Shown: positions 29,153-31,743 of the stretch, in pieces
Position numbering within the stretch: position 1 is the first letter of the stretch
How the letters are laid out: each line of letters starts with the position of its first letter
Source of the DNA: a virus
Strand: one strand, 5' to 3'
IMG/VR virus record: IMGVR_UViG_3300032242_001916
Location: 1-64,000 of that record
DNA length: 64,000 nt
Notes under the pieces: model-generated
Seen by the model: the letters and a program-made list of their open reading frames with translations, nothing else
The model's database searches: none
What the model was told of the DNA's origin: nothing
Position numbers and translations under genes: made by a program

Positions 29153-29194
29153 AAAAAAAAAGGGCTACCACCCTAATGGATGATAGCCCTTTTT
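29153..29194 (-). terminator. intrinsic terminator
   Basis: AAAAGGGCTA/TAGCCCTTTT with long T-run. Confidence 0.8.
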
Positions 29195-29379: not shown

Positions 29380-29406
29380 GGTTTCTCCTCTCTGCAGAGA
29401 AAACTA

Positions 29407-29456
29407 AAAAAAGGCGGGGGAACTAAAAGGCTGTACAACCTAATAGTTCCCCACAC
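29407..29456 (-). terminator. intrinsic terminator
   Basis: GGGGAACUA...UAGUUCCCC + U6. Confidence 0.7.
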
Positions 29457-29590
29457 CCTGATAGAGAGATACCGTAGACCTATGCCAACGATAGCCGAGT
29501 GTATTCTCCCCTATCCACACCAGTGCACTGGCTGGGAGTTTCCCTGTGGACAGATAAAGGGGATTGGAGTATCACTATCATTCTCCCACA

Positions 29591-29644
29591 TCGTGCCCCC
29601 CTGTGGAATTGAACCACAGTAGTGAAGCCTTACACTTTAGGGGC
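29591..29644 (-). ncRNA. anticodon-less tRNA-like element
   Basis: GCCCCUAAAGUGUAAGGCUUCACUACUGUGGUUCAAUUCCACAGGGGGGCACGA: acceptor, D-like and T arms only. Confidence 0.65.
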
Positions 29645-29778
29645 TTGTTGGGAACTACCTGATAACAGATAGCCCCCACACTGTATAGCCTGGTTGCACT
29701 CTCAATGACCATAGTCATAGAGAAGCAGTAGCCCAGCCTTTCTTCTGTGACGAGCGAGGGGTGTCCCACACTAATCAC

Positions 29779-29819
29779 AAAAAAAAGGCTGGAACACCGA
29801 AATGTCCCAGCCTTTTTCT
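29779..29819 (-). terminator. intrinsic terminator
   Basis: AAAAAGGCTGG...CCAGCCTTTTT. Confidence 0.85.
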
Positions 29820-29831
29820 CTCCCTTGCGGG

Positions 29832-30419
29832 TTACGACTTGATAGCCGCTAGGATTGCATCTGCAATCTTTTGCGCACGAGCCTTGTCAGACTCGGTGTG
29901 AACGCCACGAGTGACGAACTCAAGTTCTGCTTCCATACGAAGCAACGCAGATGTTGAAGTCTGCTTGAGTGATGCTCGAATGTCGGCATTTTCCTGAGTC
30001 TTAGCCTTTTTATCGGCTAAGTCACGAACCAATGCGTCATAACCCGCACTGACCTTTTGCTTGAAGGCTAGTGGGCCGGCAGCACCTACTAGGAATGCAG
30101 ACGCGAAGTCTACACATTCCTGAGCGGTAGCGTCATCTTCCAACTGATTGAACGCCCAAGCAGACCACATAAGAAGGGTGGCGCTACGAGCGACTGACTT
30201 CTTACCCATAACGGCAAGGCGGTCAGACAGTCTTCCAGTAACCTGAGTAATCCACTGTTCACCCTGACCAGCAATAACGCTAGCAATACGAGGTACAGCA
30301 ACGACAATACCAAGACCGAGGACCTCAATAATGAGTTCCGCAGTTACTAGGTCTGCGTTAGTAGCGGTAGGGTTCACAACAGGTGCTGCTCCCTCTGTCT
30401 TTAAAGATGTGTTAGCCAC
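29832..30419 (-). CDS. first gene of the leftward block, helical hypothetical protein
   Basis: AAGGAG RBS before GTG 30419. Confidence 0.75.
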   Translation of the reverse strand: MANTSLKTEGAAPVVNPTATNADLVTAELIIEVLGLGIVVAVPRIASVIAGQGEQWITQVTGRLSDRLAVMGKKSVARSATLLMWSAWAFNQLEDDATAQECVDFASAFLVGAAGPLAFKQKVSAGYDALVRDLADKKAKTQENADIRASLKQTSTSALLRMEAELEFVTRGVHTESDKARAQKIADAILAAIKS

Positions 30420-30464
30420 GGCTAAACTCCTTTGTGACAACTACGCGCACAGTGTGTGAGCGTA

Positions 30465-30499
30465 TGGTGATACGGACTGGACTTGAACCAGCCCGTACC
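30465..30499 (-). ncRNA. tRNA minihelix with encoded ACCA end
   Basis: GGUACGG GCUGG UUCAAGU CCAGU CCGUAUC A CCA. Confidence 0.75.
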
Positions 30500-30841
30500 G
30501 AGAGAGAGGTTATTGTGTGTTCTGGTGTAATGTAGAGACGGAACAGTTGTTCGGTCATACCCCCTGCCCAGTTATTTTTGGACAGCAAAAAGGGCAGACT
30601 ATTCCTAGCCTACCCAGAACAAGTTTTTCAACTTCGTAGTTGATAATAATTATTTATTACCCCCCCACCGTTAAATAACAATTTTTTATCATATTGGCCA
30701 GGTGAGACAAGTTACCAGGACCTTTTGGGCTGTACAGTGGCCCAATCTATGATCATAGAATGCACGGAGCACATTTTGCGGGTAGCTCAAATTTTTCAGG
30801 GTTTAGGCGTTTTTAGGCAGTGGCTACTTTAAGATAGGTGT

Positions 30842-31084
30842 ATGAATCCTGAAAACCCACAGTTTCGGAAACCAACTGAAGCAGAAACCATCGCAAAGAT
30901 GTATTTGGATGTAAATGGTGGGAATTGCCCTGAAGGACATGATCCACATGACTTATCTAAGCAACCTGAGGGCGGTTGTAATAAGTGTGTTGGTATGAAC
31001 CAACTTCACCATCTTGCGGGTAACCATAGCGATTCTGTGTATTTAGATACATGTCCAGAGTGCAGAAAAGAGTTGTACAAGTAA
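30842..31084 (+). CDS. MNPENPQF-leader protein with HxxGxH...CxxC
   Basis: HLAGNH..CPEC. Confidence 0.7.
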   Translation: MNPENPQFRKPTEAETIAKMYLDVNGGNCPEGHDPHDLSKQPEGGCNKCVGMNQLHHLAGNHSDSVYLDTCPECRKELYK

Positions 31085-31299
31085 TGTCAAAGATACTAGA
31101 TAAAGGCAATGGCGGGTTTCGGCCATTCAAGCGTTCAGATAAAGAAGCCGTAGAAGGCAGCATGGCGGATGGCTCTCATCCTTCATGTAAGAACTGCTCC
31201 CCATGCCCGGATTGCAAGGGGCAGTCCAACTACAGGACAGATCCGTGTGAGACGTGTAACAGCACTCATTTCATACCTAATAGAGACTTCTACGGATAA
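31084..31299 (+). CDS. small Zn-ribbon protein
   Basis: CKNC, CPDC, CETC. Confidence 0.6.
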   Translation: MSKILDKGNGGFRPFKRSDKEAVEGSMADGSHPSCKNCSPCPDCKGQSNYRTDPCETCNSTHFIPNRDFYG

Positions 31300-31356
31300 T
31301 CCCTGGTGTGACTCTACAATACCCAGCCGCGATGGCGTTAAGGTTGTAAAAAAGAT

Positions 31357-31743
31357 ATGAACCCTGAAAATCCTCAATTTGATGAAGTGTCTGCTCGCAG
31401 AGTAAAAAAAGAGCATGACAACGGTGAGCATGAGTTTCATGGCCCCGCATTCCTAAATGCCCCCAAAGAGCATCAGGACGCTATGATGGCTAAAATTAAC
31501 AGCTGCCCACACTGCAAGGCAGAGAATGAGGAAAACGCCTCAGAGGGCTCTACAGAGGCTCCTATGGCCACTGTGACTAAATTACCCACTCCATCCTTTG
31601 GTAAACAACTATTTAACACTGTTAAAGGGTTAAACCTTGCAGTTATGCACGGCATAGGTGATCACGAGTACAAAGATGGTAAAAACAGAGAAGCAGGGTT
31701 TAATAAAGATTGTCCCGTTTGTAACGGAACATTTTGGGAATAG
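31357..31743 (+). CDS. MNPENPQF-leader protein with two HxxGxH...CxxC modules
   Basis: HDNGEH..CPHC, HGIGDH..CPVC. Confidence 0.75.
   Translation: MNPENPQFDEVSARRVKKEHDNGEHEFHGPAFLNAPKEHQDAMMAKINSCPHCKAENEENASEGSTEAPMATVTKLPTPSFGKQLFNTVKGLNLAVMHGIGDHEYKDGKNREAGFNKDCPVCNGTFWE

Follow-up and report, generated by a model that had tools for sequence, protein, structure and literature searches.

In tRNA punctuation, which occurs in mitochondria and in bacterial operons of the tRNA-tufB type, a tRNA-shaped unit is excised from a transcript and defines the ends of the neighbouring RNAs. The mascRNA/MALAT1 and MEN-beta RNAs (RF01684) contain a tRNA-like fold that is cut by RNase P and RNase Z, which ends the long RNA and frees a CCA-tailed small RNA. 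Among phage RNAs, C4 is a 77-nt antisense regulator with target-pairing loops, and both early operons carry hairpins with no tRNA features in lambda and in HK022, namely boxB, a 5-bp stem with a pentaloop, and put, which consists of two stem-loops. In plant mitochondria, mRNA ends arise by RNase P/Z cleavage at t-elements (GGTTCRANYCC) and even at simple acceptor-like stem-loops, which can stand in for them (PMC1920247), and t-elements are CCA-tailed and not aminoacylated (bioRxiv 10.1101/2024.09.09.612099). Bacterial RNase P cleaves hairpins made of an acceptor stem and a T-stem-loop at the canonical site; its other substrates include phage M3 RNA, the C4 RNA of P1/P7 and mRNAs (PMC11143913). 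On the 3' side of tRNAs, E. coli RNase E cuts 1–3 nt past the encoded CCA (PMC2190699). The principle of tRNA-shape punctuation is known from mitochondria and MALAT1; for phage or bacterial mRNA leaders our literature search returned no paper on it and no description of natural minihelices.

Here, we analyzed a 35-nt element of this shape in a stretch of 64,000 nucleotides (the window), which covers the first 64 kb of a virus record that is 94.1 kb long and has direct terminal repeats. The phage looks like a myovirus, judging by its tail sheath, a class II ribonucleotide reductase and an AAA_5/VWA gene pair. Small fractions of the sampled words of the window are shared with lake/freshwater metagenomes, and contigs of relatives were present in two of them; no RNA run was listed among the matches. 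The minihelix is located in a divergent intergenic region of ~420 bp, at the head of a leftward operon whose gene content suggests that it is expressed early.

The minihelix and the head of the leftward operon

The features to which the text refers are the following, listed from the upstream side of the transcript:

30587..30615 (-), terminator-like hairpin with a U-run inside the leader, ~90 nt upstream of the minihelix
30500..30509 (-), tract rich in pyrimidines (C/U) that adjoins G1 on its 5' side, presumably the 5' leader that RNase P would take off
30465..30499 (-), tRNA top-half mimic (minihelix) of 35 nt, identified by sequence, fold and covariation
30499-30493 (-), 5' strand of the 7-bp acceptor-like stem, with G1 at 30499
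30492-30488 and 30480-30476 (-), the two strands of the T stem (5 bp), stacked on the acceptor stem
30487-30481 (-), T-loop UUCAAGU, 7 nt
30475-30469 (-), 3' strand of the acceptor stem, which pairs with 30499-30493
30468 and 30467-30465 (-), discriminator A73 and the encoded CCA, as read from the sequence
30442..30464 (-), hairpin 2, a predicted fold that begins one base past the CCA and presumably forms the 5' end of the mRNA after processing
30427..30432 (-), Shine-Dalgarno AAGGAG of the first leftward gene, 7 nt ahead of GTG 30419
29832..30419 (-), first leftward gene (gene 1), 195 aa, start GTG 30419-30417
29776..29815 (-), strong intrinsic terminator directly 3' of gene 1, with 12 pairs and then 8 T in a row

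The first-pass annotation had described a fold of 7+5 bp with a 7-nt T-loop, a discriminator and CCA at 30465-30499, behind a pyrimidine leader, and this description was exact for the minus strand, the C/U run extending over 30509-30500. All 12 pairs form, two of which are G-U (2:71 and 49:65), so the fold is specific to the minus strand. The isolated 35-mer reaches a minimum free energy of -20.9 kcal/mol (z = -6.7), none of 200 shuffled sequences folded equally well, and the same 12-bp helix was retained when 221 nt of native context were folded together. The acceptor 5' strand directly abuts the T stem with zero nucleotides between the two; as the annotation had stated, there is neither a D nor an anticodon arm, and the element is therefore not a canonical tRNA. 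It has the anatomy of a minihelix, i.e., 7+5 bp, a UUCAAGU loop closed by G53-C61, and an unpaired A followed by CCA. Position 3:70 is U-A, which bears out the remark that the alanine determinant G3-U70 is absent, and the 45 nt counted from the CCA to the GTG start at 30419 agree with the approximate distance first given.

In the window, ARAGORN and Rfam found ordinary tRNAs for Arg, Met and Asn, and as all three lack an encoded CCA, the minihelix is the only tRNA-like element of the window that carries one, again as first described. The minihelix itself was not called by either tool, even at E ≤ 10. The frequency of such hairpins by chance was estimated with 300 simulated genomes of the same dinucleotide make-up, in which twelve-pair hairpins with a UUCRA loop occurred at 0.003 per genome and never with NCCA, against one in the real genome. 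An intrinsic terminator was rejected as the identity of the element, as its tail has no U-run and the terminator scan made no call. Comparable C/U-rich tracts precede the element in the relatives L004, L006, L009, L017 and L034; the idea that this tract pairs with the Shine-Dalgarno sequence was dropped, since at most 4 pairs can form in the window.

Close relatives were found neither by megablast against phages, nor by an exact 35-mer scan of IMG/VR, nor by a search of IMG/VR with gene 1. A metagenome scan returned a single relative contig (L002), with a gene 1 that is 88% identical, in which the minihelix is unchanged and the surrounding intergenic region is more conserved than the adjacent coding sequence. 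The gene 1 product matched no Pfam or PHROG family, and its homologues among 5.8 billion proteins amount to two (88% and 62% identity). The terminator behind gene 1 is identical in L002. More strong terminators are situated on the same strand at 29160-29191 and 29405-29440, which makes three within ~1.3 kb of the operon head, so that read-through of the leftward block would need antitermination or re-initiation. A gene for an HTH regulator lies 2 kb downstream of the minihelix.

Upstream, the terminator-like hairpin at 30587-30615 is kept in L002, and L004 has a comparable hairpin with a U-run 27 nt before its minihelix; this hairpin might serve as an attenuator or mark where a small or short leader RNA ends. 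The divergent intergenic region also contains a perfect 12-nt palindrome (30747-30758), which was found in L009 and L023 as well and in near-perfect form in L002 and L004, and which is a likely operator for early promoters. A scan of 29500-31500 for sigma-70 consensus promoters gave 0 sites, and a genome-wide repeat search revealed no repeated promoter-like motif linked to the minihelix. In addition, 81 bases of the window (30438-30518) recur without a difference inside a 153-nt contig of an aquatic metagenome run (X5), where both flanks differ from the window and the downstream flank reads as another ribosome-binding site and start (M-S-K). This leader module appears to be common to otherwise different genomes.

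A second tRNA look-alike is located past the gene-1 terminator (29591-29644, minus strand; L002:1840-1894). It consists of a 6-bp acceptor stem, a D-arm-like hairpin that keeps the GG, a canonical T arm and A-CGA, with no anticodon arm, and its pair 1:72 is G-C in the window and C-G in L002, a compensatory change. The open reading frame that overlaps it (29578-29778) differs from L002 by a 1-nt indel, which indicates that the region is non-coding.

Conservation of the slot and of the fold among relatives

More distant relatives were collected by anchoring on the AAA_5 protein encoded 6 kb downstream, which yielded 33 IMG/VR loci from ~100-kb phages at ~60% identity. Custom scans and reading of the loci showed that a stable helix is always present in the same slot, i.e., at the head of the same operon, where it lies past conserved intergenic motifs and precedes the first start codon by 36-54 nt. 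Equivalent minihelices, of six other sequence types from ~100-kb phages, occupy this slot, and the helix comes in five forms overall:

Form (a), pure minihelix, 7+5 bp with a 7-nt T-loop or near T-loop, then A-CGC: L004:4937-4967; L015 and L016:4379-4409; L035:3601-3631; L017:3397-3427; L028 and L029:3873-3903; L032:3945-3976, the last with a one-base bulge and G-CGC
Form (b), acceptor stem, 13-nt insert and canonical T arm: L006:1822-1865; L007:1938-1981; L034:3854-3897
Form (c), 12-bp helix with a 15-16-nt loop, then A or G, then CUAG: L012:3588-3627; L018:4261-4300; L021:2712-2750
Form (d), hairpin of ~17-20 bp: L023, L024, L025, L027
Form (e), three-way fold with an acceptor-like closing stem: L009

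The first-pass annotation had named a full tRNA in relatives, pointing to a recent deletion, as the observation that would speak against it; no relative locus examined has a full tRNA in the slot. Rfam assigned neither a family nor a ribozyme to the minihelix or to the slots of the relatives and returned spurious miRNA-type hairpins only. A covariance model (R1) found exactly one copy per genome in three complete genomes. In a tree of the AAA_5 protein, forms with a T arm are present in four of the five subclades, and forms (c) and (d) are each limited to one part, a distribution by which the tRNA-like form is probably ancestral and long maintained, the backbone of this tree being poorly resolved. 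The first genes of different lineages have no detectable homology (A1 vs. A5, probability 0.1%; A5 vs. A6, 34%), which indicates that the element goes with the transcript and not with a particular protein. Most lineages compared also have a hairpin 2-5 nt past the discriminator, with no sequence in common and weak in L015 (the L012 and L018 rows of this comparison are not valid, as they were off coordinates).

Several other structures were noted in the relatives. A 7-bp outer helix, formed by the 5' leader and the 3' trailer, encloses the tRNA-like element in L006:1812-1878 and L007:1928-1994. Between the conserved intergenic motifs and the minihelix, a unit of ~10 nt (CGGACAAA-like) is repeated in five to six tandem copies (L015:4240-4320, L017:3240-3320, and the same region in L028, L032 and L035); these units look like a series of iterated binding sites. 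A second recurrent class of hairpins, with exactly 12 bp, G1-C72, a 6-nt loop and A-CG followed by T or C, occurs on the operon strand in a non-coding gap ~2.0-2.8 kb upstream of the AAA_5 gene, at these positions:

L015:7708-7741; L035:7744; L028:7650; L032:7647; L017:7649; L012:7529
L018:7246 and 7973; L021:7428; L005:3523; L008:903; L010:1699

A scan for 12/12 hairpins found no fully paired member of this second class in the genome of the window.

Selection on the fold was assessed with an alignment of the form (a) elements and the window (A4; seven class-A sequences of six distinct types). All 72 of its 72 cells are paired, and 9 of the 12 pairs have changed on both sides. The covariation score was 0.944, against 0.254 in shuffled alignments (0 of 500 scored as high), and controls in which the sequences were slid gave only 35-50% pairing. 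Eight of the 72 cells are G-U and would mismatch on the opposite strand, from which it follows that the structure is an RNA of the sense strand of the operon. The invariant positions are G1-C72, G52-C62, G53-C61, U54, C56, A58, U60, A73 and C74; U55 of the T-loop is replaced by G in L017 and L028, and the acceptor pairs 2:71 to 7:66 are free to vary between relatives. Since the geometry was retained through near-complete turnover of the stem sequence, purifying selection has acted on it, and by this covariation the minihelix is an RNA fold under selection that imitates the half of a tRNA in which acceptor stem and T arm stack coaxially. What the data establish is this fold and the selection on it, together with its fixed position and the tRNA-specific invariant bases.

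The encoded CCA has a narrower distribution. A-CCA is carried by the window, L002 and one short contig of another run only, the other class-A members having CGCU directly after A73 (A-CGC) and L032 having G-CGC. The same ACGCU letters stand five bases further on in the window than in the other class-A members, and it looks as if the lineage of the window gained five bases, the CCA among them. By this comparison, the conserved feature is A73-C74 and not the encoded CCA. Of the geometry that the first-pass annotation expected to find conserved in related phages, the 12 bp, the T-loop and A73 thus hold, with heavy covariation, whereas the CCA is confined to one sublineage.

Possible roles of the minihelix

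The comparative data suggest that the minihelix could be a t-element-like signal that acts in cis and directs cuts by RNase P and the 3'-end tRNA enzymes, a reading that we favour over the others and to which we give an even chance. It would be transcribed within the 5' leader of the first leftward gene, and RNase P would cut between C30500 and G30499, thereby removing all of the leader upstream of G1, the terminator-like hairpin and the C/U tract included. On the 3' side, RNase E would cut just past the encoded CCA in the window phage, followed by exonuclease trimming, and in the A-CGC relatives RNase Z would cut after A73, with CCA then added by the CCA-adding enzyme. Processing would release the minihelix as a 35-nt RNA ending in CCA and leave a shortened mRNA with hairpin 2 (30464-30442) at its new 5' end, ~10 nt ahead of the ribosome-binding site. 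Genes for a CCA-adding enzyme (PF01743) and for RtcB (PF01139) are both absent from the phage, so the enzymes of the host would have to act. What this scheme predicts is transcription through the minihelix, each of the cleavages, and whatever effect they may have on the stability or translation of the mRNA. As for the earlier proposal of a processing signal that sets the 5' end of the mRNA, the comparative pattern fits such a signal, and the setting of the end itself we infer.

Several observations argue for a cut signal. Relatives share the shape of the element and differ freely in stem sequence, and the invariant bases gather in the T-loop and at the ends of the helix, where the two cuts would be expected. 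The processing enzymes of tRNA read G53-C61, bases of the T-loop and the acceptor end, and free variation of the stem pairs fits an enzyme that reads shape rather than a sequence-specific partner. The element is present as a single copy, its distance to the start codon is fixed (36-54 nt) despite unrelated first genes, and a hairpin begins right after the discriminator. Other points count against it. A transcription start at or near G1 would make the RNase P step needless, and the promoter scan of the region was empty. Forms (c) to (e) hold the slot without a T-loop, which implies that the job of the slot is feasible without one, and the CCA that first drew attention is not conserved. An mRNA with a 5'-monophosphate, as left by cleavage, is normally less stable and not more, so hairpin 2 would have to compensate.

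The same forms without a T-loop are the starting point of another explanation, by which the element would be a plain structural leader hairpin, i.e., a 5' mRNA stabiliser, an antitermination site of the nut/put kind or a binding site for a phage regulator, with a tRNA likeness that reflects ancestry and not use by tRNA enzymes. Some subclades fill the slot with long plain hairpins or with 12-bp hairpins with a large loop, which makes the T-loop dispensable, and the leader hairpin stays while the first genes differ, which fits a role at the level of the transcript. The operon head meets strong terminators within 1.3 kb, the place where nut/put sites would sit, and the HTH regulator gene 2 kb downstream also speaks for this explanation. 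We nevertheless consider this explanation rather unlikely. It does not account for the exact 7+5 = 12 bp across stems that changed at 9 of 12 pairs, nor for the retention of G53-C61, of U54, C56 and A58 in the 7-nt loop, and of A73-C74. No boxA/boxB-like pair was found and the rightward operon head is without a matching element; for a terminator, a U-run after the helix is missing.

The minihelix could also act in trans, as a tRNA mimic whose released CCA-ended 35-mer would divert, as decoy or sponge, proteins that bind or attack the acceptor ends of tRNAs; possible targets include toxins of defence systems by which CCA ends are modified or cleaved, the CCA-adding enzyme and EF-Tu. The RNA has all the features for maturation like the top half of a tRNA, the surrounding block is rich in tRNA look-alikes and structured RNAs (e.g., the anticodon-less fold at 29591-29644), and the 81-nt module with the minihelix is 100% identical in another metagenome with differing flanks. 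Such a role is improbable in our view: the varying acceptor pairs 2:71-7:66 leave no conserved sequence-specific partner or synthetase identity, and a free RNA would not need the coupling seen here, with one copy per genome and tight spacing to the start codon. Moreover, a single lineage encodes the CCA, some subclades have lost the T-loop, and the phage is without a CCA-adding enzyme or RtcB. A decoy for uncharged-tRNA sensors, one of the functions first suggested, is disfavoured because such sensors on the ribosome, like a T-box, depend on an anticodon arm, and the minihelix has none. That the excised 35-mer would accumulate in infection and soak up host factors or defence toxins that recognise nothing but the acceptor/T-arm half of a tRNA, with the neighbouring anticodon-less mimic as a second decoy, we think quite improbable.

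A functionless remnant, either a decaying tRNA gene with its D and anticodon arms deleted or an att-type tRNA fragment, is highly improbable, for although the T arm resembles the tRNAs of the phage itself (the loop is that of tRNA-Met and the 5' T-stem strand that of tRNA-Arg) and the variants with a 13-nt insert (L006, L007, L034) resemble intermediate deletion forms, no relative has a full tRNA in the slot, the geometry outlasts near-complete stem turnover, so that covariation largely refutes decay, in L002 the minihelix has changed less than the coding sequence next to it, and its 21-nt 3' half was absent in an exact scan of one genome each of 185,579 species. An attP or host-tRNA fragment was rejected on that missing exact host match and on the presence of both acceptor strands, att fragments lacking the 5' one.

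Comparison with described tRNA-like elements

If the minihelix is a cut signal, phages would use stripped-down tRNA shapes as punctuation and thereby recruit the tRNA-trimming enzymes of the host, which are essential and ubiquitous, to cut early messages. For RNase P, RNase Z and the CCA-adding enzyme, nature would here have supplied a minimal substrate tested by evolution, and the forms seen among relatives (T-loop, enlarged loop, 13-nt insert, plain hairpin) would show how much variation these enzymes accept in vivo. With a single copy, a fixed slot and full covariation, the case is unusually clean.

Like lambda nut and HK022 put, the element is a hairpin RNA that heads an apparently early operon facing terminators. 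A lambda-type nut site was rejected as its identity, given a 12-bp helix with a 7-nt loop and no rightward counterpart; the bases after the CCA match the boxA consensus at 6 of 8 positions, and this match is not conserved in relatives. Full functional tRNAs are used in tRNA punctuation and in tRNA-mRNA co-transcripts, unlike here. The mascRNA/MALAT1 and MEN-beta class shares the placement of a tRNA-like fold inside a longer transcript, but it is eukaryotic, is cloverleaf-like with an analogue of the anticodon arm and stands at the 3' end of non-coding RNA, and the minihelix has no Rfam match. The P1/P7 C4 antisense RNA and the phi80 M3 RNA are phage RNAs whose 5' end is made by host RNase P via an acceptor-like stem, and some phage substrates of this group also head an operon (PMC11143913); unlike C4, the minihelix has no room for an effector part. 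Identical in build are the synthetic minihelix substrates of McClain, Guerrier-Takada and Altman (reviewed in PMC11143913), which have 7+5 bp, a T-loop and a single-stranded RCCA. Those are laboratory constructs from real tRNAs, whereas the phage minihelix is natural, conserved and placed in an mRNA leader.

The closest precedent is the plant t-elements (Forner et al. 2007, PMC1920247). They and the minihelix are both partial tRNA look-alikes in mRNA leaders (in plants, also in trailers), and the T arm of the window (30490-30480, minus strand) matches the GGTTCRANYCC motif. Those of plants belong to organelles, can mostly be recognised as homologues of tRNA genes and usually have fuller, cloverleaf-like folds. 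The phage element is a bare 12-bp helix with a T-loop, has no identifiable donor tRNA and, in this lineage, encodes its CCA; cleavage has been demonstrated for the plant elements and is predicted for the phage minihelix. By analogy, and with the scales evenly balanced, the minihelix may work like a t-element without being a member of that group, since it belongs to a phage genome and no descent from a tRNA was found. On the same kind of comparison, we assign it with middling confidence to the tRNA-like processing or punctuation elements, which are already known as a class.
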